IMG/VR virus record: IMGVR_UViG_3300045988_061855
Source of the DNA: a virus
Reading direction: 5' to 3' (one strand)
Length of the DNA stretch: 64,000 bases
Part shown: positions 3,158 through 33,713 of the stretch, one piece after another
Position numbering within the stretch: the first letter of the stretch is position 1
How the letters are laid out: each line of letters opens with the position of its first letter
Notes under the pieces: model-generated
Database searches by the model: none
Seen by the model: only the letters and a program-made list of their open reading frames with translations
Told to the model about the DNA's origin: nothing
Position numbers and translations under genes: made by a program

Positions 3158-3176
3158 AAAAACATGCCCTTTAATG
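3158..3176 (+). promoter_or_regulatory. Early-region box copy (WWACA-N5-TNTWATG)
   Basis: aaaaACAtgcccTTTAATG, followed at once by the terminator hairpin 3178-3214. Confidence 0.65.
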
Positions 3177-3177
3177 G

Positions 3178-3214
3178 GAGAAAGAATAAAAGAAGCTTTC
3201 TCTTTTTTTATTTT
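3178..3214 (+). terminator. Hairpin plus T-run directly after box copy
   Basis: GAGAAAG (3178-84) pairs with CTTTCTC (3196-3202), then TTTTTTTATTTT. Confidence 0.6.
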
Positions 3215-3284
3215 CAGTACGAAGGTGACAGTAATATGTCTTATATTCGCATTGATGAAAGTTGAATAGAAAGGAGAGTTCAAA

Positions 3285-3521
3285 ATGGAAATGGCAGTTA
3301 TATTAGCATTTATTCTTGGAGCTGCAATTGGTGTAGTTATGTCTGTTGTATTGGATAAAATCAGATGCAGTAATAGAGATGCGTACGGAATTTTCAAGAT
3401 TAGACCCGTATCTGATGAAGATGGCGACACCGGTTTATATTCAGTAAATGTTGCTATTGTACCTAACCAAGATTTGCTTAATAAGAAACGGATAATTCTG
3501 GTCAAGGATTCGCACAATTAA
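3285..3521 (+). CDS. Small membrane protein
   Basis: RBS AAAGGAGAG. N-terminal TM segment VILAFILGAAIGVVMSVVL. Confidence 0.65.
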   Translation: MEMAVILAFILGAAIGVVMSVVLDKIRCSNRDAYGIFKIRPVSDEDGDTGLYSVNVAIVPNQDLLNKKRIILVKDSHN

Positions 3522-3561
3522 CAATTACTTTAATGACTATAAAATAAAGGAGGTCAATTCA

Positions 3562-3951
3562 ATGAACACAAGAAGTGTATTGGAAGATGAGATTGGACGA
3601 ATCTCAGCAAAATTGAATGAAATGGAGCCAGGTACCGAAGAGTATGAAAAGTTATCGAACCTACTCCACAAGTACATCGATAGGCGTACAGAACTTGAAA
3701 AAGCAGATTATGATGCTGACGAGAAAGCTCTTGCCAGGGAAGAGGGTAATGAGCTTAAGACTCAGCAACTTAATGAGGCTAAGAAAGATCGTATTACTAA
3801 AGTGGCTATGTGGGCTGTAGGTGGCATATCTGGAGGAGTTGTAAGTATTTGGGCTGCTCTTAAAGCGTTTAAATTTGATGGAGACGGACGAATATTCTCA
3901 TCTACATTTGGACGAGACAGTGTTAAGAACTTGATTAAATTTAAGAAGTAG
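3562..3951 (+). CDS. Coiled-coil protein with C-terminal TM anchor
   Basis: RBS AAAGGAGG. Charged helical N-terminal part, then VAMWAVGGISGGVVSIWAAL. Confidence 0.7.
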   Translation: MNTRSVLEDEIGRISAKLNEMEPGTEEYEKLSNLLHKYIDRRTELEKADYDADEKALAREEGNELKTQQLNEAKKDRITKVAMWAVGGISGGVVSIWAALKAFKFDGDGRIFSSTFGRDSVKNLIKFKK

Positions 3952-3964
3952 TTACATTTTAGGA

Positions 3965-3995
3965 GGCGCTAAGGAAACTTAGTGTCTTCTTTTTT
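3965..3995 (+). terminator. Intrinsic terminator
   Basis: GGCGCTAAG pairs with CTTAGTGTC (G.U pairs only on the + transcript), then a T-run. Confidence 0.6.
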
Positions 3996-4001
3996 CGTTT
4001 G

Positions 4002-4020
4002 AAAAACATATGCCTTTATG
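4002..4020 (+). promoter_or_regulatory. Early-region box copy
   Basis: aaaaACAtatgcCTTTATG, abutting the AAAGGAGAG RBS of the 4040 gene. Confidence 0.65.
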
Positions 4021-4039
4021 AAAGGAGAGTGATATTTTT

Positions 4040-4258
4040 ATGACAATTATTCAATTAGATAAAAGTTTAGAAACAATACAATCACTGGATATAAACAAGT
4101 ATAATAAAATATACTTCTTAACTTTAGTGGAGTCTAAAACAAGGAGTGGTACAGATAATTACGTGTTTAGGTCCAAGCGATTAGATTATTTGATGTTTAA
4201 TGAGCTTGAATCTTATTTGAATAATCCAGAATACATTCTGGTAAGAATCGAAAAGTGA
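4040..4258 (+). CDS. Hypothetical protein, 72 aa
   Basis: Strong RBS; flanked by box and terminator. Confidence 0.6.
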   Translation: MTIIQLDKSLETIQSLDINKYNKIYFLTLVESKTRSGTDNYVFRSKRLDYLMFNELESYLNNPEYILVRIEK

Positions 4259-4275
4259 TTAAAAAATCAGAGACT

Positions 4276-4300
4276 GAGTCCTAACAAGGGCTCTTTCTTT
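4276..4300 (+). terminator. Terminator family A (GAGTCCTAACAAGGGCTC + T-run)
   Basis: GAGTCC pairs with GGGCTC using G.U pairs; TTTCTTTT follows. Confidence 0.65.
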
Positions 4301-4319
4301 TAACTTAGGTGGTGAGCTG

Positions 4320-4679
4320 ATGAGATATCATTTTGATAAACCAGATATATATTATTCGTTATATGGGAAAAGATACATCTGTAATCATCCAGTATATAAC
4401 GAATGTACATTATATAAGATTGACGATAAAGGGTTAGCAGTTATACAGCAGCGGTATAATCCTGAAACGAAACATACATGGTGGACAGCTATAGACCCTT
4501 GGCTTACTGACCCGATATATTTGGATATTGGTTTTAAAAATCTATTTGATGCTCGTGCCGGGAAGTGTACGGACGGATTATATCCAACGATAACTGTAAG
4601 ACAGCTCATGTGGGCACTCAAAATGAAACCGATTCCAAGAGAGCGTTGGGAAACGTGCTTTGATAAACGAGATATTTAG
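4320..4679 (+). CDS. Hypothetical protein, 119 aa
   Basis: ORF with GGTGGTGAG RBS; no recognised motif. Confidence 0.65.
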   Translation: MRYHFDKPDIYYSLYGKRYICNHPVYNECTLYKIDDKGLAVIQQRYNPETKHTWWTAIDPWLTDPIYLDIGFKNLFDARAGKCTDGLYPTITVRQLMWALKMKPIPRERWETCFDKRDI

Positions 4680-4684
4680 CGTCA

Positions 4685-4702
4685 TTTACATGTACTTTAA
4701 TG
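4685..4702 (+). promoter_or_regulatory. Early-region box copy
   Basis: ttTACAtgtacTTTAATG, upstream of the RBS of the 4728 gene. Confidence 0.6.
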
Positions 4703-4727
4703 AGATACATATAAGGAGGATACTAAT

Positions 4728-4904
4728 ATGACTTGGAAGACTATTGAAGCAGCTAGGGAGATTAGACAATGGACGACTCAGATAGTAATACCGACAGTTG
4801 CAGTTGGTGTAGCTATTGCAGTTACTCCAGAGTTAAGAGAACCAGTTGTTGATACTTATAGGACAGTAAAAGAAAAAATTAAATCAAAGATATGTAGAAA
4901 GTAA
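4728..4904 (+). CDS. Small membrane protein, 58 aa (sub-threshold ORF)
   Basis: AAGGAGG RBS. MTWKTIEAAREIRQWTTQIVIPTVAVGVAIAVTPELREPVVDTYRTVKEKIKSKICRK*. Confidence 0.55.
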   Translation: MTWKTIEAAREIRQWTTQIVIPTVAVGVAIAVTPELREPVVDTYRTVKEKIKSKICRK

Positions 4905-4910
4905 AGCAAA

Positions 4911-4945
4911 GGGCTTGAGTCTTAGGACTTGGGCTCTTTCTTTTT
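4911..4945 (+). terminator. Terminator family B (GGGCTTGAGTCTTAGGACTTGGGCTC + T-run)
   Basis: 11-bp stem with four G.U pairs, so it folds only in the + transcript; TTTCTTTTT follows. Confidence 0.7.
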
Positions 4946-4953
4946 CGTGTAAG

Positions 4954-4970
4954 AAACATGTTCCTTTATG
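4954..4970 (+). promoter_or_regulatory. Early-region box copy
   Basis: aaACAtgttcCTTTATG, upstream of the 5004 gene. Confidence 0.6.
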
Positions 4971-5003
4971 AGAAAGTGATGAAACATTAAGGAGGATTTC
5001 AAA

Positions 5004-5219
5004 ATGGAAAAAGAACAGAGAACACAGAAGATTGACGAATTCTTGGAGAAATTTGATGAAATGATTAAGGCTGCTAATGCCATCGAAGATTTTAAATTTG
5101 AGATAGGTGTTACAATTCATAGTCGTGACAGCATGGTTTCTGATAGAGTACGGACAATTAACGGTATCAATGAAATATTTTCAAAGAATGATATGAAATG
5201 GTCATCATCAAATGCTTAA
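5004..5219 (+). CDS. Hypothetical protein, 71 aa
   Basis: AAGGAGG RBS; flanked by terminators. Confidence 0.6.
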   Translation: MEKEQRTQKIDEFLEKFDEMIKAANAIEDFKFEIGVTIHSRDSMVSDRVRTINGINEIFSKNDMKWSSSNA

Positions 5220-5223
5220 GGTT

Positions 5224-5249
5224 GAGCCCGCAAGGGCTTTTCCTTTTTC
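5224..5249 (+). terminator. Intrinsic terminator
   Basis: GAGCCC gcaa GGGCTT, then TTCCTTTTT. Confidence 0.6.
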
Positions 5250-5255
5250 GCACGA

Positions 5256-5273
5256 TATACAATCCCTTTAATG
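5256..5273 (+). promoter_or_regulatory. Early-region box copy
   Basis: taTACAatcccTTTAATG, upstream of the 5298 gene. Confidence 0.6.
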
Positions 5274-5297
5274 ACTGAAAGTAATAAGGAGGTTGAA

Positions 5298-5462
5298 ATG
5301 ATACTATTAATTATTTTGATACTTATCGTTTTTATACTAACTACGGTTGTAGTGCTTAGTGTAAGTGCAATAGGCAGTGCAGCTATACTTATATTTGGGG
5401 ACGTTATAGTATGTATTGGTTTTTTGGTATGGCTAATCAAAAAACTTGTTACTAAGGATTGA
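5298..5462 (+). CDS. Small hydrophobic membrane protein, 54 aa
   Basis: ATG behind AAGGAGG (the track's upstream start was rejected). MILLIILILIVFILTTVVVLSVSAIGSAAILIFGDVIVCIGFLVWLI... Confidence 0.55.
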   Translation: MILLIILILIVFILTTVVVLSVSAIGSAAILIFGDVIVCIGFLVWLIKKLVTKD

Positions 5463-5470
5463 TGAAAGAA

Positions 5471-5505
5471 GGGCTTGAGTCTTAGGACTTGGGCTCTTTC
5501 TTTTT
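5471..5505 (+). terminator. Terminator family B, second identical copy
   Basis: GGGCTTGAGTCTTAGGACTTGGGCTCTTTCTTTTT, identical to the copy at 4911. Confidence 0.7.
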
Positions 5506-5513
5506 ATCCGCGT

Positions 5514-5533
5514 AAAAAACAATTTATCTAATG
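5514..5533 (+). promoter_or_regulatory. Early-region box copy
   Basis: aaaaaACAatttaTCTAATG, ending 3 nt before the tRNA-like 5' end. Confidence 0.6.
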
Positions 5534-5536
5534 AGA

Positions 5537-5607
5537 GAATAGGTAGCTCAGGTGGTAGAGCAGCAGATTTATTCTGCGGGCCATGGGTTCGAGTCCCATT
5601 CTATTCT
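5537..5607 (+). tRNA. tRNA-like gene with aberrant anticodon arm (possible anticodon UUA, or pseudo-tRNA)
   Basis: Acceptor GAATAGG/TCTATTC, D arm GCTC-AGGTGGTA-GAGC and T arm ATGGG-TTCGAGT-CCCAT are all canonical. The anticodon arm GCAGA-TTTAT-TCTGC is 2 nt short. No encoded CCA. Confidence 0.55.
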
Positions 5608-5642
5608 CTTTTTTATTTTTTATAATAAGGAGGATTTATAGC

Positions 5643-6419
5643 ATGAAGTCACATTACCGATGGAAATGCAAAACTGCTACTGTACTAACATTTATTGGTG
5701 CAGCTGGTGTAGTAGCAACAGCTGTAACAACAGCTAAACAGACACCTAAAGCTTTAAGATTGCTTAAGGAAGCTAGTGATGAGAAAGGAGAGGAACTTAC
5801 ATTTGCAGAAAAGGCAACAGCTATGTTACCTGCATATTTGCCAGCCATAGTGACAGGCTCAGCGACTATTTTATGTATATTTGGCGCAAATATATTAAAT
5901 AAAAGGAGCCAGGCAAGTTTAGTAAGTGCGTATGGATTATTAGACCAGAGATTCAAAGATTATAAGAGAAAACTTATTGAATTATACGGACAGGATGCTC
6001 ATGAAAAGATAATCACTGAACTTGCAGCTGAGAAAGCAGAAAACCGATATATTTCTAGTTCATATCTCGGATGCAAATCTTGTGCATTATATTTAGACGA
6101 AAACGTTGGTAAGCCTGTATTATTTTATGAACCGGTATCTGATAGGTATTTTGAAGCTACTGTTGAGCAGGTCATGAACGCTGAATATCATCTTAATAGG
6201 AACTTTGCTCTGGCTGGTGCAGCTTTGCTTAATGAGTTTTATGATTTTATTGGAATAGAAGAACGACCGGAATTAGATGAAATGGGATGGGCTCCAACTG
6301 ATGAGGGCGAATTCTGGATTGAATTCAATCACGTTCCAAAGGACCTTCCAGATGGCAGGAGATGCTACATAATCGACATGCCATTTGAACCAAGGGTTAA
6401 TTTCGACGATTATGATTGA
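5643..6419 (+). CDS. DUF6353-like membrane-anchored protein, paralogue 1
   Basis: ATG 5643 behind AAGGAGG (the track start overlaps the tRNA-like gene). N-terminus VLTFIGAAGVVATAVTTAKQTPKALRLLKEA is shared with the 6910 and 9482 products. Confidence 0.75.
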   Translation: MKSHYRWKCKTATVLTFIGAAGVVATAVTTAKQTPKALRLLKEASDEKGEELTFAEKATAMLPAYLPAIVTGSATILCIFGANILNKRSQASLVSAYGLLDQRFKDYKRKLIELYGQDAHEKIITELAAEKAENRYISSSYLGCKSCALYLDENVGKPVLFYEPVSDRYFEATVEQVMNAEYHLNRNFALAGAALLNEFYDFIGIEERPELDEMGWAPTDEGEFWIEFNHVPKDLPDGRRCYIIDMPFEPRVNFDDYD

Positions 6420-6431
6420 TTGTCGTGTCAA

Positions 6432-6448
6432 ATACTTAGCCTATTATG
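6432..6448 (+). promoter_or_regulatory. Early-region box copy (weak upstream half)
   Basis: atACTtagccTATTATG, abutting the RBS of the 6465 gene. Confidence 0.35.
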
Positions 6449-6464
6449 GAAAGGAGGATTAATC

Positions 6465-6623
6465 ATGAAAGATAAGTTTGATTTTAAAACTCTTATAATA
6501 CCAGCTGCTATGGGAATTATGACATTTATCACAGCAGTTGTAGACAGTAAGAGAAGTAAGAAAATCGATGAGCTTAGCGAAAAGATTGATAAGCTCGAAT
6601 CTAAGGACGAAGAGGTTGCCTAA
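6465..6623 (+). CDS. Small membrane protein, 52 aa
   Basis: ATG behind AAAGGAGG. TM segment LIIPAAMGIMTFITAVV. Confidence 0.55.
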   Translation: MKDKFDFKTLIIPAAMGIMTFITAVVDSKRSKKIDELSEKIDKLESKDEEVA

Positions 6624-6686: not shown

Positions 6687-6920
6687 ATGAACAACATTAT
6701 TACAAACCCAACACAGAAAGAATTTAATGAGGCAATGGACATCGTTAAGGATTATTTAAGAATTAATAAAATTCAGTTTATTGCTTTTGATGCGGAGAAG
6801 AATGCCATAGTAGCCGCAATTGGATTTGAAGATGCTATGAATAATAAGAAAGAAATATTTGGTGACAGGTATGTCAGCATGTTTGATAAGAAGTTAGAGG
6901 AGAAAAAGAATGAGAACTAA
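6687..6920 (+). CDS. Hypothetical protein, 77 aa
   Basis: RBS AAAAGGAGA; overlaps the next gene's start. Confidence 0.6.
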   Translation: MNNIITNPTQKEFNEAMDIVKDYLRINKIQFIAFDAEKNAIVAAIGFEDAMNNKKEIFGDRYVSMFDKKLEEKKNEN

Positions 6921-7680
6921 TTTAGAAAAGATATTCAGACCCATAGCAAAACAGGTGTCAAAATATGGTCCTGAAATTGCTGTGGGTGTAGGTATTGCAG
7001 GAATGATTACGACAACTATTCTTGCTGTCAAAGCAACACCAAAAGCTTTGAAGTTAATAGATGAAGCTAAGAAAGAAGAAGCAGTTGAACTCAAACCTAC
7101 AGAAGTTGTCAAGGTTGCATGGAAACCATATATTCCAGTGATGATTTCAGGAGCATTATCCATAGGTTGCATAGTTGGAGCGAGCACAGTTCATGTAAAA
7201 AGAAACGCTGCTCTTGCTACGGCATATCAGTTGGCGGCTAACACACTCAGTGACTATAAAGAGAAAGTTATAGAGACCATCGGTGAAGAAAAAGAAAAAG
7301 AAGTACAGAAGAAAGTAGATGCTAAGAAAGTAGAAAAAATTAGTTCTACTGAGCCATCTTTTGTACGTAAGGGAAAGCCTTTATGTATTGAACCGATATC
7401 TGGTCGTCCATTTGAAATGGATTTGGAAGATGTCAAGGCCGCTATTAATAGACTCAATTATAGACTTACAGGTGGTATGGAAGAATGTATCTCTTTGTCA
7501 GAATGGTATGATGAGATTGGATTAAAACATACCGATGTATCAGATTATATGGGTTGGAATATTTACAGTGACGGCTTAATTACAGTAACTGAAGTCCCAA
7601 GTTCAACAGATGATGGCGAATTATGCTGGGTACTTGAGTATGCAGTATTACCACATTACAAGTATGAGAAAACGCGTTAA
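6910..7680 (+). CDS. DUF6353-like membrane-anchored protein, paralogue 2
   Basis: KYGPEIAVGVGIAGMITTTILAVKATPKALKLIDEAKKEE. Central and C-terminal blocks are also shared with paralogue 1 (e.g. MGW, F/YE). Confidence 0.8.
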   Translation: MRTNLEKIFRPIAKQVSKYGPEIAVGVGIAGMITTTILAVKATPKALKLIDEAKKEEAVELKPTEVVKVAWKPYIPVMISGALSIGCIVGASTVHVKRNAALATAYQLAANTLSDYKEKVIETIGEEKEKEVQKKVDAKKVEKISSTEPSFVRKGKPLCIEPISGRPFEMDLEDVKAAINRLNYRLTGGMEECISLSEWYDEIGLKHTDVSDYMGWNIYSDGLITVTEVPSSTDDGELCWVLEYAVLPHYKYEKTR

Positions 7681-7697
7681 AAACAACACCTTTAATG
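7679..7697 (+). promoter_or_regulatory. Early-region box copy
   Basis: aaaaACAacaccTTTAATG; overlaps the stop of the 6910 gene and lies upstream of the 7743 gene. Confidence 0.6.
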
Positions 7698-7742
7698 GAT
7701 AAATACATATCCAATTAATTATATTCTAGGAGGATTTATATT

Positions 7743-8314: not shown

Positions 8315-8959
8315 ATGAGCGAAGTAAAAATGGATATTAAACCAAACTCTCACAGATATAAAGCCGAACAGCAGGCCAAATTATCAGAAGAGAGAAAAGT
8401 AAGCAAAGTAACCAGTGGTAGGGTCAGAACTAAGAAGAAATCTGAGATTGCGAAGATGAAAGATTCTATCATATCCCCAGAAGCTAGTGGAATGCAGTCT
8501 TATATTTTTGGAAGTGTGCTTATACCAGCTGTAAAGAAATTGATGTCAGATATTGTAAAAGATGGTATTGACATCCTTCTGTATGGTGACACACGGAGAT
8601 CAAGTAGAGACCGTGACGACAGGGACAGGTATTCTAATGGAGCAACGTATGTCTCTTATAGAAGTTATTCTGATAGAGACCGTGACGACAGAGAGCGGAG
8701 ACGGGAATCAAGATATGCGTATGACTATAAAGAATTAATATTTGACAGTAGGTCAGATGCTAAAGAAGTTTTAGACACTCTACTTGATATTCTTGATACC
8801 TATGATTCAGTAAGTGTCGGGGATTTATATGATGCAGTAGGCATGAGTCACAATTACACGGACAATGATTATGGATGGACTAATTTAAGTTCAGCAGAGG
8901 TTGTTTGTATCAGAGGCGATTACATGCTCAGATTACCAAAGGCTAAGCCTTTAAGATAG
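8315..8959 (+). CDS. Protein with an RD/RE-rich low-complexity centre and a C-terminal globular domain
   Basis: RBS AAAGGAGA. RRSSRDRDDRDRY...SDRDRDDRERRRESRY, then ...VSVGDLYDAVGMSHNYTDNDYGWTNL... Confidence 0.7.
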   Translation: MSEVKMDIKPNSHRYKAEQQAKLSEERKVSKVTSGRVRTKKKSEIAKMKDSIISPEASGMQSYIFGSVLIPAVKKLMSDIVKDGIDILLYGDTRRSSRDRDDRDRYSNGATYVSYRSYSDRDRDDRERRRESRYAYDYKELIFDSRSDAKEVLDTLLDILDTYDSVSVGDLYDAVGMSHNYTDNDYGWTNLSSAEVVCIRGDYMLRLPKAKPLR

Positions 8960-8967: not shown

Positions 8968-9081
8968 ATGAAGAAATCATTAGGATATTATTTAGGAAAT
9001 GCTTTTGCAGCTGTTATAGCAATATGTGTAATGGTGCTTATTATGACTCTTACATATAAACTGGTTATGTGGATTTTATAG
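8968..9081 (+). CDS. TM peptide, 37 aa (sub-threshold)
   Basis: TAGGAGGAACT-ATG. MKKSLGYYLGNAFAAVIAICVMVLIMTLTYKLVMWIL*. Confidence 0.4.
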   Translation: MKKSLGYYLGNAFAAVIAICVMVLIMTLTYKLVMWIL

Positions 9082-9092: not shown

Positions 9093-9482
9093 ATGGCATA
9101 CGTTAAAGAAAATGACACGATTCAGAATAGTAGTAATCCAATAAATAGAAATGGAATTTTAAGCAAAGCAGAGTCAATTATTAATGGTGAGCGTCAGGGA
9201 ACATATGGTGATGCTGAAGATAGTTTTCAGACAATTGCAGATATGTGGAGTGCGTATCTGAACACAGAGATATCATCTGAAGATGTTGCTAATATGATGA
9301 TTCTTATGAAAGTTGCTAGGAATTCTAGTGGGGTTTACAAGGATGATAATTGGATTGATATTTGCGGTTATGCGGCATTGGGCGGAGAAATTCAGGCTGC
9401 TAAAAATGCAATTCATGTGCAGTTTGAAGAAAATAAAAAAATAACTGCATCTATTATTGATGGTTTGAAAGGAGATAAATAA
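9093..9482 (+). CDS. DUF6378-like protein
   Basis: GERQGTYGDAEDSFQTIADMWSAYL...MILMKVARN...DNWIDICGYAALGGE matches my recollection of DUF6378. Confidence 0.7.
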   Translation: MAYVKENDTIQNSSNPINRNGILSKAESIINGERQGTYGDAEDSFQTIADMWSAYLNTEISSEDVANMMILMKVARNSSGVYKDDNWIDICGYAALGGEIQAAKNAIHVQFEENKKITASIIDGLKGDK

Positions 9483-10447
9483 TGTTTAATTTTAATAATA
9501 TGGCTAACAAGGCTTCAAGAATGTTAAATAAGGTAGGATTTCAGGTAAAGAAATATAGTCCTGAGATTCTTATATGTGCTGGTGTGATTGGTGTAGGTGC
9601 AAGTGGTGTAATGGCTTGCAGAGCGACAACAAAGCTAAGTGATATCATTGATAAGGCTAATGACGACATCATCAAGACTGATGAGGTTATAGCTAATCCT
9701 GATATGTTACCAGAGGGGTCAGAAGAGTATACAGAAGAAGATGCCACTAAGGATAAAGTAATAATCAGAGCGCATATGGTAATGGATATTGTAAAGCTGT
9801 ATGCACCATCAGTTATATTAGGTGGATTATCACTCACAGCAATTCTTACATCTAACAATATTCTCAGGAAGAGAAATATTGCACTTGCAGCTGCTTATGC
9901 TTCAACTAACAAGACGCTTAAGGAATACAGACAGAGAGTTGTTGAGCGTTTTGGAGAAGATGTTGACAAACAGCTTAGATTTAATACAAAGCAGGAAGAA
10001 ATTGAAGAAACTGTCATAGATGAGAAGACTGGCAAAGAGAAGAAAGTTAAGAAGACTATAGAAGTGTTTGACCCTAACACTCTTGGCGATTTTGCGGTTA
10101 TATTTGATGAGTCTAATGTTAACTGGAGTAAGACACCTGGCGCTAATAAAATGTTTCTTATTAATCAGCAGAGATATCTAAACGATAAGCTTAAGGCTAA
10201 AGGACGTTTATTTGTAAACGACGTTAATGAAGCACTCGGATTCCCGTTGACAGCAGCTGGTCAGGTTGCTGGTTGGGTTTACGATGAGGAGCATCCTATA
10301 GGAGACAATTGTATTGATTTTGGATTGTTCGATTTAGACAATCCTAGAGCGGTAGATTTTGTCAATGGATATGAGCGAAGCATTATAATTGATTATAATT
10401 GTGATGGGAACATCTTGAAGTATCTTGATGAGCCCAGGATTAGATAG
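9482..10447 (+). CDS. DUF6353-like membrane-anchored protein, paralogue 3
   Basis: KKYSPEILICAGVIGVGASGVMACRATTKLSDII, with a longer middle region than the other two paralogues. Confidence 0.75.
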   Translation: MFNFNNMANKASRMLNKVGFQVKKYSPEILICAGVIGVGASGVMACRATTKLSDIIDKANDDIIKTDEVIANPDMLPEGSEEYTEEDATKDKVIIRAHMVMDIVKLYAPSVILGGLSLTAILTSNNILRKRNIALAAAYASTNKTLKEYRQRVVERFGEDVDKQLRFNTKQEEIEETVIDEKTGKEKKVKKTIEVFDPNTLGDFAVIFDESNVNWSKTPGANKMFLINQQRYLNDKLKAKGRLFVNDVNEALGFPLTAAGQVAGWVYDEEHPIGDNCIDFGLFDLDNPRAVDFVNGYERSIIIDYNCDGNILKYLDEPRIR

Positions 10448-16387: not shown

Positions 16388-16397
16388 TGTTCGCTTG

Positions 16398-16416
16398 AAA
16401 AACACGGCATGTTATG
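16398..16416 (+). promoter_or_regulatory. Early-region box copy
   Basis: aaaaACAcggcaTGTTATG, just after the polymerase stop and upstream of the 16451 gene. Confidence 0.55.
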
Positions 16417-16450
16417 GATAAACATATCAAATCTAAGGAGGATTTATATT

Positions 16451-19009: not shown

Positions 19010-19147
19010 ATGATATTGATACTATTTGGAATAATTGTGGTCTTGGCGATTGGAACGGTACTCAATATTATATTTGCAGTTAACGAACCAGACGATGATA
19101 TTCGCGATGAGAACGACTCCTTTAATGAGAATAAAACAAAGGAGTGA
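19010..19147 (+). CDS. TM peptide, 45 aa (sub-threshold)
   Basis: MILILFGIIVVLAIGTVLNIIFAVNEPDDDIRDENDSFNENKTKE*. Confidence 0.4.
   Translation: MILILFGIIVVLAIGTVLNIIFAVNEPDDDIRDENDSFNENKTKE
19111..19127 (+). promoter_or_regulatory. Early-region box copy (weak upstream half)
   Basis: gaACGactccTTTAATG, upstream of the 19153 gene. Confidence 0.35.
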
Positions 19148-19816: not shown

Positions 19817-19827
19817 TGGTCGTGTAA

Positions 19828-19845
19828 TTTACAAGTACTATTATG
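19828..19845 (+). promoter_or_regulatory. Early-region box copy
   Basis: ttTACAagtacTATTATG, abutting the AAAGGAG of the 19863 ORF. Confidence 0.55.
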
Positions 19846-19862
19846 AAAGGAGTGTGATATTT

Positions 19863-21843: not shown

Positions 21844-21990
21844 TGGATGAAAAATTTCAAAAGGCTAAAGAAATATTGAATAGCATGACTAATGCAATTT
21901 ACAAACAATATTTCGGAAAGAGAGGCAAAAAGAAAAACAAGTAAAATAGCTCGCGTGTTTCACGCACTCTGTAATGAGAAAGGAGAGTGA
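21844..21990 (+). CDS. Possible small ORF, 48 aa
   Basis: Strong TAGGAGGATTTACATT-ATG context, but the 3' part overlaps a box copy. Confidence 0.35.
21958..21976 (+). promoter_or_regulatory. Early-region box copy (weak upstream half)
   Basis: tttcACGcactcTGTAATG, abutting the AAAGGAGAG of the 21996 gene. Confidence 0.35.
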
Positions 21991-27361: not shown

Positions 27362-27416
27362 AGTTCTTTCTGCCAATGAAACACTTTGCCTAGTTATTGC
27401 TAGGGGTCACGCTAAA

Positions 27417-27434
27417 TTTACATCTCCTATAATG
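27417..27434 (+). promoter_or_regulatory. Early-region box copy (inside intron)
   Basis: ttTACAtctccTATAATG, abutting the AAAGGAG of intron ORF 1. Confidence 0.6.
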
Positions 27435-27449
27435 AAAGGAGTGATTTAT

Positions 27450-27661: not shown

Positions 27662-28025
27662 TATATTTTAGCGTGGCTAACGGGGAACCACCCATTGGAA
27701 TCCCGTGGGAAACATTTCAAAGATATATTTTCGCGAAAATTACATGGTGTATTATGAGAGAATAAGGCCCGTGGAATTAAAAATATTAACCACAATTCTA
27801 GGGTGACTAGTAACGGTGGAGATTCTATTAGAATCGTAGTTAGGCAAGATCCTTATTCTTTTTTGTTTTTATTTCTTTTATATTTTTGAAATGAACCTGT
27901 AGAGGCTATCCCCTATGCCTTCCGGGCGGGGGAGTAGGGCTACTATTGATACGTAGCTGGGTTTTAGGAAACGAAGCCCATGAAAACCGAAATGGTGTCC
28001 TATTGTTTTTTGTGTGTTAGCGAGA

Positions 28026-28043
28026 TTTACAACTCCTTTTATG
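28026..28043 (+). promoter_or_regulatory. Early-region box copy (inside intron)
   Basis: ttTACAactccTTTTATG, abutting AAAGGATGG. Confidence 0.6.
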
Positions 28044-28060
28044 AAAGGATGGTGATATTT

Positions 28061-28285
28061 ATGTTTAATTTTTTTAAGAAAAAAGTCAGAGAAGAGGACC
28101 CAATATTGAAGGAGATAAACCAACAAACTGAAGAATTAAAAGCTATAACCGATTCTATGCGTAGAGATAACGAATCATTAGAAGCTGATATTCAAATTGC
28201 GGAAAAATTATTACTCAATAGGGGATACTCACAAGAGGATTTGGAAAAATTAAAAATAAAATCGAAACTCAAAATAGTTAAGTAA
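28061..28285 (+). CDS. Intron ORF 2, 74 aa coiled-coil, no homing-endonuclease motif seen
   Basis: MFNFFKKKVREEDPILKEINQQTEELKAITDSMRRDNESLEADIQ... Confidence 0.5.
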   Translation: MFNFFKKKVREEDPILKEINQQTEELKAITDSMRRDNESLEADIQIAEKLLLNRGYSQEDLEKLKIKSKLKIVK

Positions 28286-29284: not shown

Positions 29285-29641
29285 ATGACAACGCACAATA
29301 AATATGACAATGATATTTTAAAGCAACTTACAAGGATTGCTAACGCTTTAGACAGGATAGCTAAGAGATTACCAGAAGAATGTGATACAGCTGAGTACGC
29401 AAAAGAGAATCCAGATTGGACTGAGAAAATTGAAAAGATGGCTTCTGGTTATTATTTACAGGTAATAAGATGTAAAGACTGTAAATGCTTCATACCATTG
29501 GAAGATATGAAAAAATGCCCGGAATACAAGGATTACCCATTTGATGCAGCAGAAAAAGTACATTCTGATGGTATATGTACAAATACTGATAAATGGGTTT
29601 ACACAAGTGATTTCTGTAGTGAGGCTAAAAACTCGCAGTAA
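29285..29641 (+). CDS. Cys-rich hypothetical protein, 118 aa
   Basis: AAGGAGG RBS. CKDCKC...C...C. Confidence 0.65.
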   Translation: MTTHNKYDNDILKQLTRIANALDRIAKRLPEECDTAEYAKENPDWTEKIEKMASGYYLQVIRCKDCKCFIPLEDMKKCPEYKDYPFDAAEKVHSDGICTNTDKWVYTSDFCSEAKNSQ

Positions 29642-29658
29642 AAACATGTTCCTTAATG
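29640..29658 (+). promoter_or_regulatory. Early-region box copy
   Basis: aaaaACAtgttcCTTAATG, upstream of the 29689 gene. Confidence 0.6.
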
Positions 29659-29688
29659 AGTAAATTATAATCTAAGGAGGAATTAATT

Positions 29689-29883: not shown

Positions 29884-29900
29884 TAATTTATTAAAGCAAA

Positions 29901-29936
29901 GGGCTTGAGTCTTAGGACTTAGGCTCTTATTTTTTA
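29901..29936 (+). terminator. Terminator family B, third copy
   Basis: GGGCTTGAGTCTTAGGACTTAGGCTCTTATTTTTT. Confidence 0.65.
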
Positions 29937-30109: not shown

Positions 30110-30118
30110 GCAATTAGT

Positions 30119-30748: not shown

Positions 30749-30766
30749 TAAGAAAGGATATTAACT

Positions 30767-30907
30767 ATGGCAAAGATATTATTAAGTGAGAGCGATATGA
30801 AAGCTCTTAATAATGGCGAGATTGTAAGTGCTATGATTTATGGATATTTAATTGGTATTCAGAAAGACACTAGAAAACCAGAGAAGGCTAAAGAAGAGGA
30901 GGAGTAA
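30767..30907 (+). CDS. Possible small ORF, 46 aa
   Basis: MAKILLSESDMKALNNGEIVSAMIYGYLIGIQKDTRKPEKAKEEEE*. Confidence 0.4.
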   Translation: MAKILLSESDMKALNNGEIVSAMIYGYLIGIQKDTRKPEKAKEEEE

Positions 30908-30911
30908 TGTT

Positions 30912-31274
30912 ATGGCATATATTATGAATATTAATATACAGGCCGATGAGGACATACAATATATTCTTAGAAATATAAAAAAATCAGATACAGGAGCTTA
31001 TGTTTTTATGTCTGATAATAGAGAATCACTCATAAATATTTTTTGTGAGATACTACGCGATATTAATGAGACAATATATACAAGCAATAAATCATTGGAT
31101 TTAATAAAAATAAAAGGGTTCGTATCAGAGGCGTATACAGATATATCGTTAGATTGCAACACCGACAAGTATTCATATGAGTTAAATTATGATGATTTTT
31201 CAATAAGTTTTAAATTAACTAGCATAAATGTATTTACTATCTATAGCGATATTATTCAAATTAAGGAGGAATAA
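30912..31274 (+). CDS. Hypothetical protein, 120 aa
   Basis: ATG behind GAGGAGGAG; the track's TTG start was rejected. Confidence 0.6.
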   Translation: MAYIMNINIQADEDIQYILRNIKKSDTGAYVFMSDNRESLINIFCEILRDINETIYTSNKSLDLIKIKGFVSEAYTDISLDCNTDKYSYELNYDDFSISFKLTSINVFTIYSDIIQIKEE

Positions 31275-31278
31275 TGTT

Positions 31279-31500
31279 ATGTCTGATATCAAAAAATGTG
31301 ATAGATGTGGAAAAACATACGAGTATGATTTTTCTGATAAGCCCACGGATACTGAAACGAGATATCTAACTACCATTACTTTGAATGCAAAAGATTTGTG
31401 GAAACGTGAGTATCATAAAACTTATGACTTGTGTGCCGACTGCTGTGTGTCTTTAATGGAATGGTTAAATTTTGATATGGCTGAAGAAAGGAAAGACTAA
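31279..31500 (+). CDS. Cys-rich small protein, 73 aa
   Basis: CDRCGK...CADCC; AAGGAGG RBS. Confidence 0.6.
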   Translation: MSDIKKCDRCGKTYEYDFSDKPTDTETRYLTTITLNAKDLWKREYHKTYDLCADCCVSLMEWLNFDMAEERKD

Positions 31501-31745
31501 TGATATGCGATTGGAATGAAGTATTTAACCCTACTCCTGAACAGAAAAAATATTATGAAGACGAATATAAAAAACTATTACAAAGCGCATATGACGAGCA
31601 TAAATGTTTTACATGTAGACATTATATTTCTGATGAACCTGAGCGAGACTTTATTCAACCTTGTCCAACATGTGAGATTACTGGTCATGCTGCTATTACA
31701 ACTTGTGATAAATATGAGAGCAACGGTAAGGAGGAAATACATTGA
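31500..31745 (+). CDS. Cys-rich small protein, 81 aa
   Basis: CFTC...CPTC...C. Confidence 0.6.
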   Translation: MICDWNEVFNPTPEQKKYYEDEYKKLLQSAYDEHKCFTCRHYISDEPERDFIQPCPTCEITGHAAITTCDKYESNGKEEIH

Positions 31746-31907
31746 AAGAGAAGCTTAATTTATATTTTACAGTAAAGGCTTTGAAATATCGTTTTGAGCC
31801 TGCTGGGTTTAGATATCGTTTGTACTCTTGGCTTGTCAGAAAGACTGACTAACATACGCGACATATACTTATTATATTATGAGAAAATAATAAGGAGGAT
31901 TTATATT

Positions 31908-32048
31908 ATGCTTACATTTATGTTTGATAGTGTTGAAGAATTAGTTAAATTCAGGGAGGAATGTATTGAAAAATACAATGAGGTTCCTAGAATTTCAGCG
32001 GTTTTTCATGGCAACGAACATACATATTTTGCAAGGGTTAATATGTAG
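31908..32048 (+). CDS. Hypothetical protein, 46 aa
   Basis: AAGGAGGATTTATATT-ATG context. Confidence 0.45.
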   Translation: MLTFMFDSVEELVKFREECIEKYNEVPRISAVFHGNEHTYFARVNM

Positions 32049-32121
32049 TAATTATTAAAAGAAATGTTCTTGGCATTTGCTGAGGCTTTTCTTTTTGCTC
32101 TGTCGGATATGGTCGTGTGAG

Positions 32122-32138
32122 ATACATAGTGTGTTATG
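32122..32138 (+). promoter_or_regulatory. Early-region box copy
   Basis: atACAtagtgTGTTATG, abutting AAAGGATGG. Confidence 0.5.
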
Positions 32139-32156
32139 GAAAGGATGGTGATATTT

Positions 32157-32426
32157 ATGACGGATATTGAAAAGCAAATAGAGGCTATGGGATACGAAGT
32201 TCGTGTTAGTGACATGTCTAATGAGTATATTGTTTATGAGAATAAAAAAAGTGATCAAGAAGTAACCTTAGAATGGGATTACGAAGATCAGTATTGTATG
32301 ATACATTCGCAAACAATATCAAGAGAAAAAGATTGGATAGGACAGACACATCAAATGCCTATGCCATTAACTATTTGTGAAGCTGAAATATTTATGGCTA
32401 GACTTAAAGAATTACGAGAGTCCTAA
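32157..32426 (+). CDS. Hypothetical protein, 89 aa
   Basis: ATG 32157 behind AAAGGATGG. The last codons ES* lie in the terminator's 5' arm. Confidence 0.6.
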   Translation: MTDIEKQIEAMGYEVRVSDMSNEYIVYENKKSDQEVTLEWDYEDQYCMIHSQTISREKDWIGQTHQMPMPLTICEAEIFMARLKELRES

Positions 32427-32447
32427 CAAGGGCTCTTTCTTTTTTAT
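32418..32447 (+). terminator. Terminator family A copy
   Basis: GAGTCCTAACAAGGGCTCTTTCTTTTTT. Confidence 0.65.
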
Positions 32448-32461
32448 ATTTAGGAGGGTTT

Positions 32462-32644
32462 ATGAATATAGTTAGTGGATATTGGAAGAGTATTGATGGC
32501 TCCGTTACGTACGGATATTGCACTTGTGGTAGAGAGGTAAAATCTACCAAAGAGGAAAGAGATGAAAAATGTCCTATGTGTGGAGCAAAAATTGTGTGGG
32601 ATTTGGGTAATCCTGAGTTATGGATTGGACAGAAAAAGCAGTGA
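32462..32644 (+). CDS. Zinc-ribbon protein, 60 aa
   Basis: CTCG...CPMCG; TAGGAGGG RBS. Confidence 0.55.
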   Translation: MNIVSGYWKSIDGSVTYGYCTCGREVKSTKEERDEKCPMCGAKIVWDLGNPELWIGQKKQ

Positions 32645-32652
32645 TTTTATGG

Positions 32653-32668
32653 GTAACCAATTGGTTAC
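32653..32668. promoter_or_regulatory. Operator-like palindrome O1
   Basis: GTAACCAATTGGTTAC, a perfect 16-bp palindrome. Confidence 0.65.
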
Positions 32669-32734
32669 AGGTATGCTTTTTTGAAGATTTTTTATATGAT
32701 TTTATATTTTTGAAAAATTGCATTTTTGACTGGT

Positions 32735-32750
32735 GTAACCGTTTGGTTAC
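32735..32750. promoter_or_regulatory. Operator-like palindrome O2
   Basis: GTAACCGTTTGGTTAC. Confidence 0.6.
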
Positions 32751-32788
32751 TCGATGGTATTTATTATGATACAAAAAGGCTAAAAAAC

Positions 32789-32834
32789 GGCTATTTTTGG
32801 TCATTTTTGGCTATATTTTGCCCATTTTTGGCTA
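32789..32834 (+). repeat. Phased ~10-bp direct repeats (GGCTATTTTT-like), 4-5 units
   Basis: GGCTATTTTT GGTCATTTTT GGCTATATTTT GCCCATTTTT GGCTAA, read directly. Confidence 0.7.
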
Positions 32835-32838
32835 ACAT

Positions 32839-32853
32839 CGCATAATTAATACC
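32839..32853. repeat. Left arm of perfect 15-bp inverted repeat
   Basis: CGCATAATTAATACC; its reverse complement lies at 33673-33687. Confidence 0.75.
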
Positions 32854-32858
32854 AAAGT

Positions 32859-32875
32859 GTTAACCGACTGGTTAC
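32859..32875. promoter_or_regulatory. Operator-like palindrome O3 (one extra base)
   Basis: GTTAACCGACTGGTTAC. Confidence 0.5.
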
Positions 32876-32929
32876 ACCCCCTTATTACATAATAAAAAAA
32901 TTAAATATATTAAAGGACTTTTTGCAGGT

Positions 32930-32945
32930 GTAACCAATTGGTTAA
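32930..32945. promoter_or_regulatory. Operator-like palindrome O4
   Basis: GTAACCAATTGGTTAA, about 40 bp upstream of the XRE gene start. Confidence 0.6.
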
Positions 32946-32982
32946 TACCCCTTTATTTTTAGCACAAAGAAAGGAGCATGTT

Positions 32983-33231
32983 ATGCATAACAACGAATAC
33001 ATAAGTGAAGTCGAGTTTATAGATATCTTTGCAGATAACTTAAGAGATATTATGTATGAAATGGATATAAGCGAAGGAGAGTTAGCAAGAAGGACTGGGT
33101 TATCCAAAATGGCAATCAGTAGATATCTTAATAAAAAAAGAATGCCAACATTAAAAGCGCTGGTAAATCTATCATATGTACTCTGTGTACCGATAACTGA
33201 TTTAATACCAACATATGCAATGATTGATTAG
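32983..33231 (+). CDS. XRE-family (Cro/CI-type) helix-turn-helix regulator
   Basis: ATG behind AAAGGAG. ...ISEGELARRTGLSKMAISRYLNKKRMPTLKALVNLSYVL... is a typical HTH_XRE pattern. Confidence 0.8.
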   Translation: MHNNEYISEVEFIDIFADNLRDIMYEMDISEGELARRTGLSKMAISRYLNKKRMPTLKALVNLSYVLCVPITDLIPTYAMID

Positions 33232-33256
33232 AAGATATAATGGAGGATTTATATTT

Positions 33257-33619
33257 ATGAAAAATAATGTAAGGGTGGGAATACTAGAAACCGGTCAAGT
33301 ATTTGATTCTATAACGGCGTGTGCCAATTATATTGGAGGGAATGCAAGACATGCCAGTATTGTGAGTCGGAATCCGAGAATGACTTGCAAAGGCTATCAT
33401 ATAGTTCGAATAGATGAACCAATTCCTGAAATTGATCTATCGAGAAGTTTTGTCGGACGACCTGGAATTCGTGTAAGGATTGTTGAGACAGGCGATGAAT
33501 TCGATTCAATCAAAGAGTGTGCAGAATTTATGAATTGTAGTAGTGGGAGAATACATGATGCTCTTACAGGTTACAATAATATTCATACATATAACGGTTA
33601 TCATTTTACATATGTGTGA
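33257..33619 (+). CDS. Protein of two tandem homing-endonuclease-type DNA-binding modules (NUMOD/IENR-like), no nuclease domain
   Basis: VGILETGQVFDSITACANYIGG..CKGYHIV and VRIVETGDEFDSIKECAEFMNC..YNGYHFTYV. Confidence 0.7.
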   Translation: MKNNVRVGILETGQVFDSITACANYIGGNARHASIVSRNPRMTCKGYHIVRIDEPIPEIDLSRSFVGRPGIRVRIVETGDEFDSIKECAEFMNCSSGRIHDALTGYNNIHTYNGYHFTYV

Positions 33620-33630
33620 TTTATATTTAT

Positions 33631-33668
33631 GGGCTTTAGTGTGACAAACTAAGGCTCTTATTTTTTGC
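33631..33668 (+). terminator. Intrinsic terminator
   Basis: GGGCTTTAGT pairs with ACTAAGGCTC (G.U pairs), then a T-run. Confidence 0.65.
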
Positions 33669-33672
33669 TTAT

Positions 33673-33687
33673 GGTATTAATTATGCG
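33673..33687. repeat. Right arm of perfect 15-bp inverted repeat
   Basis: GGTATTAATTATGCG. Confidence 0.75.
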
Positions 33688-33692
33688 AGCGT

Positions 33693-33713
33693 AAAAAACA
33701 TGCCCTTTTATAG
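33693..33713 (+). promoter_or_regulatory. Early-region box copy (variant heptamer)
   Basis: aaaaaACAtgcccTTTTATAG, with no ORF downstream before a terminator. Confidence 0.55.

Follow-up and report, generated by a model that had tools for sequence, protein, structure and literature searches.

Promoters that occur in many copies and are specific to an RNA polymerase (RNAP) encoded by the phage itself are elements of an already known kind, as in T7, N4 and P23-45. Here we describe candidates for a further set, found in a viral DNA stretch of 64,000 nucleotides (nt) from the IMG/VR record IMGVR_UViG_3300045988_061855, hereafter the window. The element in question is a box of about 27 nt ending in ATG, present at 20 sites in the early and middle region, and its proposed partner is a 963-amino-acid (aa) protein encoded at 34644..37535 on the + strand, a single-chain two-barrel RNAP candidate with a helix-turn-helix (HTH) module near each end. 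Judging from the sequences of the window and of its relatives, the boxes are very probably promoters from which RNA starts at the final G of the box (position 0) or at the next base (+1). That they are promoters and that the 963-aa polymerase is the enzyme that reads them is the likelier reading, held with less assurance than the first.

The Thermus phage P23-45 has two-barrel RNAPs, each with its own multi-copy conserved promoter motif (PMC10770324). Its enzymes gp96 (in the virion) and gp64 (not in the virion) are, like the enzyme considered here, single-chain and related to cellular RNAPs, and their motifs lie upstream of pre-early or early genes (PMC10770324). As appears to hold in the present case, the motif is found only in relatives that encode the enzyme, and one of the P23-45 enzymes is delivered with the virion (PMC10770324). 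The resemblance stops there, since no sequence similarity is detectable between the enzymes and the motifs are unrelated; moreover, the window enzyme carries fused HTH modules at both ends and is not fused to a tape measure protein. A second point of comparison is given by the T7-type promoters, which span about 23-27 bp up to +1, contain an AT-rich melting segment, start with a purine, occur in many copies and require no sigma factor. The box is similar in its conserved run up to +1 (TATA followed by G in T7, TATAAT followed by G here), its purine start, its copy number and, as proposed here, its independence from sigma factors. The enzymes differ: T7 RNAP has a right-hand Pol I-like fold, as opposed to the predicted double-psi-barrel, its early gene is transcribed by the host RNAP, and it uses a specificity loop where the window enzyme would use HTH domains.

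The virion RNAP of N4 and the crAss-like gp66 are injected with the particle for early genes and are independent of the host enzyme; here, one annotation in phage 1706 suggests the same. Unlike the protein considered here, both are giant (>2000 aa) and encoded among structural genes, and the N4 enzyme recognises DNA hairpins. In the account of it given in PMC10770324 (Drobysheva 2021 as cited there), gp66 is a two-barrel, YonO/QDE-1-like, virion-packaged enzyme. Finally, SPbeta YonO is, like the window protein, a prophage single-chain polymerase with a DxDGD loop, from the broad branch of QDE-1 and RNA-dependent RNA polymerases (RdRP), and its gene also lies just upstream of late/structural genes. 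No HTH modules have been described in YonO, unlike the window enzyme, and YonO has one mapped transcription start site for a single late operon (PMC5467207), whereas the window has 20 early/middle boxes.

The box and its distribution

A first-pass annotation, made from the letters of the window, had listed 17 copies of a bipartite box, WWACA-N5-TNTWATG, confined to the early/middle region, and had proposed looking for its enrichment over shuffled sequence and in related phages; both were found. In the window, the strict pattern has 12 exact matches, all on the + strand, vs 1.06 expected, and none of 100 shuffles reached 12. Coordinates were anchored on the G of ATG, taken as position 0 (G0), and a position weight matrix (PWM) spanning -26 to +2 was trained on window sites only. 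Its scores are bimodal: 20 sites lie at 21-35 bits (17-33 bits with each training site left out), the next-best match on either strand of the window scores below 14 bits, and the mean maximum in Markov-random sequence is 13. All 17 listed sites proved real once anchored on the G of ATG, and all are among these 20; three had been missed (G0 3535, 27756 and 31881). The 20 sites are without exception on the + strand, between 3150 and 33713. The PWM detected no box cluster on the minus strand or in the late 30 kb, and no site past 33713, in agreement with the absence from the late module that had been noted.

The box is tripartite, with TCGY at -25 to -22, ACA at -14 to -12 and cTnTWATG at -7 to 0, followed by a purine. 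The conserved bases are T-25, C-24, G-23, Y-22 and G-21; A-18; A-14, C-13 and A-12; C-7, T-6, then after one variable position T-4, W, A-2, T-1 and G0; and a purine at +1. The two parts of the bipartite description, ACA and TNTWATG with their fixed spacing, are thus retained, and the upstream TCGY patch is added to them. As G-23 (19/19 sites) and C-24 (16/19) are conserved even though both positions fall outside the pattern used for selection, the sites form one family and the motif is tripartite over about 27 nt. The three patches are one helical turn (10 nt) apart, the sequence between them is variable and no conserved base-pairing is seen; by this spacing, the patches sit on one face of the DNA, as for a protein reading the duplex.

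A megablast search with 7.7 kb of the window against annotated phages gave no match, and relatives were found at the protein level only. The window-trained PWM was scanned over relatives that encode the 963-aa family, i.e. the direction tested was from RNAP to box. The box was present in 10 of the 10 RNAP-encoding phages or groups with enough early-region sequence, which is the enrichment in related phages mentioned above. These ten cover six host genera in two phyla (three bacterial classes) and two gut-contig groups; the lactococcal phage CHPC971 was left out because it comes from the same genus as 1706 and is not independent. The IMG/VR relatives with 98-99% RNAP identity (the 99% relatives) have 4-10 sites in the 10 kb upstream of the gene, in records reaching that far. 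In a group of gut contigs with 61% RNAP identity (the 61% group) sites occur as well, one of them, of 36.3 bits, about 1 kb before the gene, and MT835495 (56%) has two sites of 33 and 31 bits. At greater distance, 14 sites (gACGCGAAAAAnnCA-N5-CTTTATG) were found in FP_oengus (Faecalibacterium, RNAP 44%), 10 (CTCGCAAGAATTACA-N5-TTATAATG) in CapnMurica (Arthrobacter, 44%), 13 (CTCGCAAGAATTACAnGnCCTATAATG followed by AGACCCCTAC, up to 32 bits) in OlympicHelado (Streptomyces, 59% GC, RNAP 43%) and eight in Duffington (Gordonia, 43%). In the Lactococcus phages, P092 (34%) has 10 sites of the form TTTTACAyACCCTATAATG, without the TCGY patch, and 1706 (38%) has 12 variant sites (TTyrCAwGTTTTACA-N5-CTATAGTA followed by GAAAG). 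A compilation of 71 sites from six phages, to which P092 contributes 7 sites above the PWM cut-off, gave C-13 in 71/71, T-4 in 70/71, T-1 in 70/71, G0 in 69/71 and a purine at +1 in 71/71.

In every genome scanned, the boxes lie on the coding strand of the early region. Outside the lactococcal lineage, which has a different operon arrangement, each lineage has one of them immediately before the endonuclease/exonuclease/RNAP operon. A hairpin and a T-run immediately follow this RNAP-operon box in the 61% group, MT835495, FP_oengus and CapnMurica. In the window a terminator-like hairpin lies about 60-85 nt downstream of it, and in OlympicHelado (box at 32052) a T-run is found about 25 nt downstream. 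These hairpins and T-runs look like attenuators on a self-activating operon.

SPbeta, which encodes YonO, showed no box cluster in the 72 kb scanned. It was rejected as a promoter model, there being no box in the yonN-yonK gap with the mapped YonO start, and YonO is not detectably similar to the 963-aa protein. A scan of GTDB genomes yielded one distant locus (L002), with no clear boxes within its 10 kb. Two further observations concern individual relatives. In FP_oengus, a single 17-bit PWM match at 36368, inside a tail gene (CTCGCAAGAATTACTATCCCTATTTTC), lacks the terminal ATG and is probably a chance occurrence or a relic. In MT835495, an 'UNVERIFIED' gut scaffold, the segment 30001-69826 has no boxes and a GC content of 48% vs 43% over the initial 50 kb; possibly, this scaffold is a chimera.

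Neither the box nor transcription in this lineage was found described in the literature searched, and queries with literal box sequences matched only unrelated primers. What is new, being undescribed in that literature, is the box itself, its tripartite architecture along one DNA face, the fact that it is paired with an HTH-flanked QDE-1-like polymerase, and the near-identity of its sequence in phages from two phyla.

Probable RNA 5' ends and fit to sigma-A promoters

Downstream of 16 of the 20 boxes, a Shine-Dalgarno (SD) sequence and an ATG are found, the start codon lying 16-46 nt after position 0. The SD starts at +2 to +4 at seven of the 20, which agrees with the first-pass statement that several copies end 0-3 nt before an AAAGGAG ribosome-binding site (RBS). 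The four remaining boxes head non-coding units: a hairpin with a T7 run from 3177, a tRNA (5537-5608), a 102-nt RNA from 27757 and the leader of the RNAP operon from 33713. The tRNA accounts for the tRNA-like gene previously placed 3 nt after a copy (G0 5533), and the two copies described as followed only by a terminator are those at 3176 and 33712, to which the non-coding unit behind 27756 is to be added. On the upstream side, a predicted intrinsic terminator lies 4-77 nt before 8 of the 20 boxes, so that the claim that most copies follow a terminator was overstated (8/20 within 80 nt). Seven other boxes adjoin or overlap the stop codon of the preceding open reading frame (ORF). Intrinsic terminators are enriched only on the + strand of the early region.

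The non-coding units bear on the position of the RNA 5' end. The comparison covers 15 such box-driven units, from seven loci in six phages or phage groups; in 14 of them, the closing stem of the RNA, which precedes the T-run, has its first nucleotide at +1 to +5, mostly at +1 or +2. The terminal stem is AGAGAATAG...CTATTCTCT-T6 for the window tRNA, GAAGGAGA...TCTCTTTC-T6 in FP_oengus and AGAAGAA...TTCTTCT-T10 in P092, and CapnMurica has two, AGAAGG...CCTTCT and AAAGGTAAGG...CCTTGCCTTT. In the fold of the window tRNA, the leader AGA pairs with the trailer TCT, which lengthens the acceptor stem as far as the T-run. Of the tRNA or tRNA-like genes called by a tool, that of FP_oengus (ARAGORN) starts at +1 and that of the window at +4; a tRNA-like unit of P092 that ARAGORN leaves uncalled starts at about +7 by eye. 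Because the stem and tRNA nucleotides from +1 onwards must be in the transcript, we infer that the RNA 5' end lies at position 0 or +1 of the box.

Like the sigma-A promoters of Firmicutes and Actinobacteria, the box combines a TATAAT-like hexamer with an upstream element that has TTnnCA-like bases. Unlike them, it has an extra ACA patch 5 nt upstream of the hexamer, and its RNA 5' end appears to lie at the end of the hexamer instead of about 7 nt past it. A sigma-A start about 6-7 nt past the hexamer would truncate seven SDs, as had been argued for the RBS in the first-pass annotation, and would cut the tRNA/tRNA-like acceptor stems that start at +1 and +4. The A at -11 of the -10 hexamer is near-invariant in promoters of the sigma-70 family; at the equivalent position of the box (-5, hexamer position 2), A is found in 4/19 sites and T in 11/19. 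A -35 element at 16-18 nt and a TG extension are both absent from the window sites, and the earlier remark that no -35 lies at 17 nt is borne out; what is conserved instead is TCGY, about 14-15 nt upstream of the heptamer, which gives a spacer of 14-15 nt to the hexamer vs 16-18 in sigma-A promoters. A consensus scan showed no enrichment of sigma-70-type promoters anywhere in the window. The box does not have the make-up of a sigma-A promoter.

The candidate polymerase and rival readers

The 963-aa protein contains GADFDGD at residues 533-539, the only such motif in the ORFs of the window, which is invariant in family alignments of 10 and 27 sequences. R488-x-P490, 47 residues before D535, is invariant in both alignments as well. 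The signature of two-barrel polymerases is R-x-P...DxDGD, the two parts being about 30-45 residues apart, with R962/P964 in QDE-1 and R446/P448 in Rpb1 (PMC2919709). The family phrog_4291 matches the protein end to end (E=0), and full-length homologues occur in 251 annotated phage records. The HTH modules lie at about 95-140 and 926-960 (about 95-158 and 910-960 as matched in searches); they are all that Pfam and PDB sequence searches find, phmmer and hmmsearch against PDB giving HTH domains only and no RNAP. Similarity to YonO is likewise absent at the sequence level (BLASTP E=0.5; hhalign of the family profile against YonO, probability 0.3%). An AlphaFold2 (AF2) model has a pLDDT of 71 and a pTM of 0.51, the cores at 260-340 and 460-545 exceeding a pLDDT of 80. 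In PDB, Foldseek matched it significantly only to QDE-1 (E=2e-7) and to RDR2 of maize and Arabidopsis (E=4e-4 to 8e-3), with a probability of 1.0 and TM-scores of only 0.2-0.3, i.e. the core is matched and not the whole architecture. By the same approach, the C-terminal HTH resembles LuxR/GerE-type (sigma-4-like) domains. Koert et al. recognised the same cross-phylum lineage, reported an HHpred match of the protein to RdRP PF05183 at 95.7%, and considered it a signature gene and possibly an RNAP; their text does not use the word 'promoter' (bioRxiv 10.1101/842583). The phage 1706 protein had been placed among five 'YonO-like' families (PMC2919709). In view of DFDGD, the upstream RxP, the Foldseek matches to QDE-1 and RDR2 and these published HHpred and PSI-BLAST assignments, we regard the protein as a candidate single-chain two-barrel RNAP of the QDE-1/RDR/YonO-like kind. 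A DxDxD scan of all window ORFs, including the 2135-aa tape measure protein, revealed no second, virion-borne RNAP.

The genes that accompany the box narrow the choice of its reader. The non-structural core common to four box-bearing phages (window, FP_oengus, P092 and CapnMurica) comprises DUF6353 paralogues, a 214-aa protein, the polymerase/primase, the helicase, the small endonuclease-like protein, the exonuclease, the 963-aa protein and the 90-aa protein encoded after it. The single-stranded DNA-binding/annealing protein of the window matches P092 and CapnMurica only, the annotated annealing protein of FP_oengus being unmatched by tblastn. This core contains no sigma factor, and no recognisable DNA-binding domain besides the 963-aa protein. 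The first-pass annotation had favoured a phage-specific promoter with initiation at or just after ATG(A/G), possibly read by the 34644 product or else by the host RNAP with the regulator at 1847. The promoter and its start gain support from comparative and structural inference (conservation in the lineage, misfit to sigma-A, RNA stems), and the 34644 product gains support in the same manner from a box that travels with the family, from DFDGD and from the QDE-1/RDR2-like fold. The combination of host RNAP and 1847 regulator is weakened: this protein had no tblastn match in the early-region sequence compared of P092 and CapnMurica, both of which have boxes. It was rejected as box reader, being present only in the two temperate members (window and FP_oengus), and since it is shared only with the other temperate member, FP_oengus, it is more likely related to lysogeny.

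The HTH modules themselves offer a hint on recognition. Wherever the boxes have TCGY, including 1706 with its degenerate patch, the recognition helix of HTH-N reads (N/S)ES(S/T)VR. P092 alone has SPGSVTN, and it alone lacks the TCGY patch; its HTH-N is 17% identical to that of the window protein, vs 34% overall. This co-variation, seen at the sequence level, hints that HTH-N may take part in reading TCGY. Metagenomic relatives of P092 with other helices (P0128, P0137 and P0127) have 10-kb flanks with too few boxes to compare.

The best-surviving alternative is that the boxes are promoters of the host RNAP acting with a phage-encoded or an unusual host specificity factor, the 963-aa polymerase doing something else, e.g. 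transcribing the late genes. The middle promoters of T4, where the host RNAP is redirected by the phage factors MotA and AsiA, provide a model for it. Three features speak for this alternative, namely the -10-like downstream patch, the location of the RNAP gene just upstream of the late module, like yonO (YonO transcribes late genes only), and the intrinsic terminators, obeyed by host RNAP, that punctuate the box region. We nevertheless consider it unlikely. No sigma factor or recognisable DNA-binding protein is common to the box-bearing phages, with the 1847 regulator unmatched in the P092 and CapnMurica sequence compared. The box is near-identical in phages of Actinobacteria, Clostridia and Bacilli, so that the factor would need to be independent of the host. 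The equivalent of A-11 is unconserved, and 14-15 nt separate the upstream patch from the hexamer. In addition, a start about 6 nt downstream would destroy the seven SDs and cut the tRNA and tRNA-like genes at +1 and +4, in conflict with RNA stems that begin at +1 to +5.

RNA processing, which the first-pass annotation had named as its alternative, is kept as a rival, albeit a very improbable one: an endoribonuclease of phage or host would read some 27 nt in a read-through RNA and cut after ATG, which would produce the 5' ends of the mRNAs, the tRNA and the small RNAs. The stem geometry locates 5' ends and not how they arise, and 12 of the 20 boxes, being without predicted upstream terminator, are reachable by read-through. 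This reading fits poorly with the boxes that stand directly past terminators; for the eight that lie 4-77 nt past strong intrinsic terminators, little upstream RNA would contain them. The 10-nt spacing of the patches, with variable sequence and no conserved pairing between them, is that of duplex reading on one face, boxes 1-3 head the early region without obvious upstream promoter, and no lineage-conserved RNase candidate was recognised besides generic nucleases. Least probable of all, the boxes could be orientation-specific sites for a repressor or another protein that silences or pauses transcription, comparable to the 'stoperators' of cluster A mycobacteriophages, which are also multi-copy, asymmetric, single-orientation and intergenic, in a window that is likewise a prophage with integrase; yet the box also occurs in members without annotated integrase or repressor in the regions read (1706 is titled virulent), is absent from the long late operon, is in fixed register with the starts of genes and the 5' ends of RNAs, and is accompanied by no repressor conserved across the lineage.

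Several points weigh against promoters read by the 963-aa polymerase. YonO, the one relative by name that has been characterised, transcribes the late genes of SPbeta from a single promoter (PMC5467207), which is the opposite pattern. The heptamer is a perfect TATAAT followed by G in the actinophages and P092, and some use by host RNAP is possible. The AF2 model is moderate and its TM-scores of 0.2-0.3 are low, while the co-variation of HTH-N and TCGY amounts to a single evolutionary event. The RNAP gene stands at the downstream end of the box region and is itself box-driven, so that a source of first enzyme is needed. The evidence for a virion location is one depositor annotation in a distant relative, that of phage 1706 orf75 (EU081845), a full-length homologue (38% identity, E=7e-175) labelled 'structural protein', a label repeated by similarity for ReqiPepy6 gp106. 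If the 1706 annotation reflects virion proteomics, the first enzyme may be delivered with the DNA. No trigger was identified for starting the loop from the prophage, and the late genes could be transcribed by read-through from box 20 or from a promoter of their own.

In the explanation that we prefer, the boxes would be promoters of the phage's own RNAP, an enzyme of the QDE-1/YonO kind with an HTH module fused at each end. The two modules would read the two upstream patches (TCGY at about -24, ACA at about -13), and the catalytic core would melt the AT-rich patch and initiate with a purine at the G of ATG or at the next base. Each box would start a short early or middle unit, including the suppressor-type tRNA and small hairpin RNAs, many of these units ending at intrinsic terminators. 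The hairpin behind the RNAP-operon box would throttle the positive-feedback loop and, after infection, the first polymerase molecules might arrive with the DNA, as suggested by the 1706 homologue annotated as a virion protein. A broader version of this scheme is tentative, and we would not give it even chances: a host-factor-free system in which a virion-carried enzyme reads TCGY with a sigma-4-like HTH-N and ACA with the second HTH and starts at the end of TATAATG. Such a system would have stayed nearly unchanged through moves between Actinobacteria and Firmicutes, its independence from host sigma factors aiding the jumps. In temperate members, the attenuated RNAP operon would then act as a feedback switch, with the prophage silent until the first polymerase is made.

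Proposed transcription units of the window and the wider lineage

The individual sites, all on the + strand and called by the PWM, are described from 5' to 3', SD and ATG offsets being counted from position 0. Box 1 (3150..3177, G0 3176; 34.8 bits) precedes a ~38-nt unit made of a hairpin and a T7 run (3177-~3215), the stem of which extends from +2 into the T-run, upstream of the ORF 3285-3521. Box 2 (3509..3536, G0 3535), one of the three new sites, has an SD at +12 and the ATG of a 129-aa ORF at 3562. Box 3 (3994..4021, G0 4020) stands 4 nt past a terminator, with its SD at +3 and an ATG at 4040. Box 4 (4676..4703, G0 4702; ATG 4728) overlaps the stop of the ORF 4320-4679, while box 5 (4944..4971, G0 4970; ATG 5004) and box 6 (5247..5274, G0 5273; ATG 5298) lie 5 and 8 nt past terminators, respectively. 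Box 7 (5507..5534, G0 5533) heads the tRNA unit. It is followed by box 8 (6422..6449, G0 6448; SD +3, ATG 6465), box 9 (7671..7698, G0 7697; ATG 7743) and box 10 (16390..16417, G0 16416; ATG 16451), the last of which is directly 3' of the DNA polymerase gene.

Further downstream come box 11 (19101..19128, G0 19127; ATG 19153), box 12 (19819..19846, G0 19845; SD +2, ATG 19863), box 13 (21950..21977, G0 21976; SD +4, ATG 21996) and box 14 (27408..27435, G0 27434; SD +2, ATG 27450). Box 15 (27730..27757, G0 27756), also new, heads a structured non-coding RNA of about 102 nt that ends in a T-run (27757-~27865), and box 16 (28017..28044, G0 28043) has its SD at +2 and an ATG at 28061. Box 17 (29632..29659, G0 29658; ATG 29689) precedes the third new site, box 18 (31855..31882, G0 31881; ATG 31908), which is the weakest (21.4 bits) and has ACT instead of ACA. 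Box 19 (32112..32139, G0 32138) has an SD at +3 and an ATG at 32157. Box 20 (33686..33713) is the only site with A at position 0 (33712); it heads the endonuclease/exonuclease/RNAP operon, with a non-coding leader, a terminator-like hairpin at 33771-33795 and an ATG at 33823.

Parts of these units recur. Near-identical terminator hairpins (AAGGGCTTGAGTCTTAGGACTTGGGCTCTT) are found at 4908-4939, 5468-5499 and 29899-29928, and one SD-spacer cassette, AAAGGAGnGTGATATTTATG, lies downstream of seven boxes; whole terminator-promoter-RBS modules seem to have undergone duplication or exchange. The tRNA of box 7 (5537-5608, + strand) was called by ARAGORN with the anticodon tta, i.e. of suppressor type (UAA), and matches the Rfam tRNA model at 56 bits; the Rfam scan of the window found nothing beyond it. 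The window ORFs are intact in the standard code, with no hint of recoding despite this suppressor-type tRNA. The same box-driven position is occupied in FP_oengus by a tRNA-like gene (2935-3006) whose anticodon loop is abnormal, and P092 has two tRNA-like units uncalled by ARAGORN (~8607-8690 and ~8995-9080). The box-driven tRNA may be a tRNA-like small RNA conserved in the lineage, and not a decoding tRNA.

Nearly all convincing genes of the window are on the + strand, and its GC content is about 35%. The integrase (156-1349, +) is followed by a long run of small + strand genes that forms the early region, with three DUF6353 paralogues (5583-6419, 6910-7680 and 9482-10447, all +) that are kept lineage-wide, from Lactococcus to Arthrobacter phages. 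The replication genes, also on the + strand, encode a 1380-aa primase/polymerase, the single-stranded DNA-binding/annealing protein and the helicase. The operon before the late module (+) encodes the small endonuclease-like protein, a Cas4-type exonuclease and the 963-aa protein, and the late module extends from ~38.1 kb (+) with HNH, terminase, portal, capsid and tail genes. For Lachnospira eligens, a 601-kb contig is on record with a copy of the 963-aa protein that is 99% identical; because of this copy the window is, on sequence evidence, a prophage from a gut bacterium of the Lachnospiraceae. A classical repressor was not recognised in the window. The sole convincing minus-strand gene (2885-3061, 58 aa) has a good RBS and is divergent from box 1, and the 137-aa protein at 1847-2260 is, as is the integrase, common to the window and FP_oengus only; both are candidates for lysogeny control.

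At the end of the RNAP operon, a 90-aa protein (37538..37810, +; phrog_4303, no Pfam match) always immediately follows the RNAP gene, and is found in FP_oengus, P092, CapnMurica and the 61% group; it is a possible polymerase cofactor, or could be related to cos. The window, the 61% group, MT835495 and FP_oengus all show strong conservation of the ~95 nt after the operon (about 37826-37905), in which a G-run hairpin is followed by CATCGCGCCGGTCTTT and by CCCCGGnGGG. In the ReqiPepy6 record, a 3' cos overhang or end is marked about 280 nt past the gene next after the RNAP, and the 963-aa homologue is encoded by the rightmost large gene wherever a record marks, or probably follows, virion ends. 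As this segment coincides with the genome ends of linear relatives, it is probably a cos site. The leader of the late module contains an inverted repeat (37924-37957/38025-38058) with 34-nt arms that are 85% complementary and 67 nt apart; GAACCTATAAT is present in each arm, and there are sigma-70-like hexamers in facing orientation. At the corresponding place the 61% group also has a long inverted repeat, the sequence of which is different. The repeat of the window is a candidate late-promoter or regulatory structure.

For YonO, the promoter sequence and whether the enzyme recognises it alone were left to be determined (PMC5467207). To this promoter question of YonO/QDE-1-type enzymes, the lineage brings a defined candidate promoter of 27 bp, for which 71 examples are compiled and the invariant positions are clear, and the built-in HTH modules suggest how recognition works. 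The pair might also serve as a compact orthogonal expression system for Gram-positive bacteria of high and low GC. The lineage is large, with >250 isolated phages of Arthrobacter, Gordonia, Streptomyces, Rhodococcus, Microbacterium, Curtobacterium, Lactococcus and Faecalibacterium, and at least 8000 metagenomic homologues, many of them from the human gut. Most of its genomes annotate the gene of the 963-aa family only as 'HTH DNA-binding protein'. If the boxes are promoters as proposed, they would give immediate operon maps for these phages and would reveal box-driven tRNA-like and small RNAs among their early transcripts.

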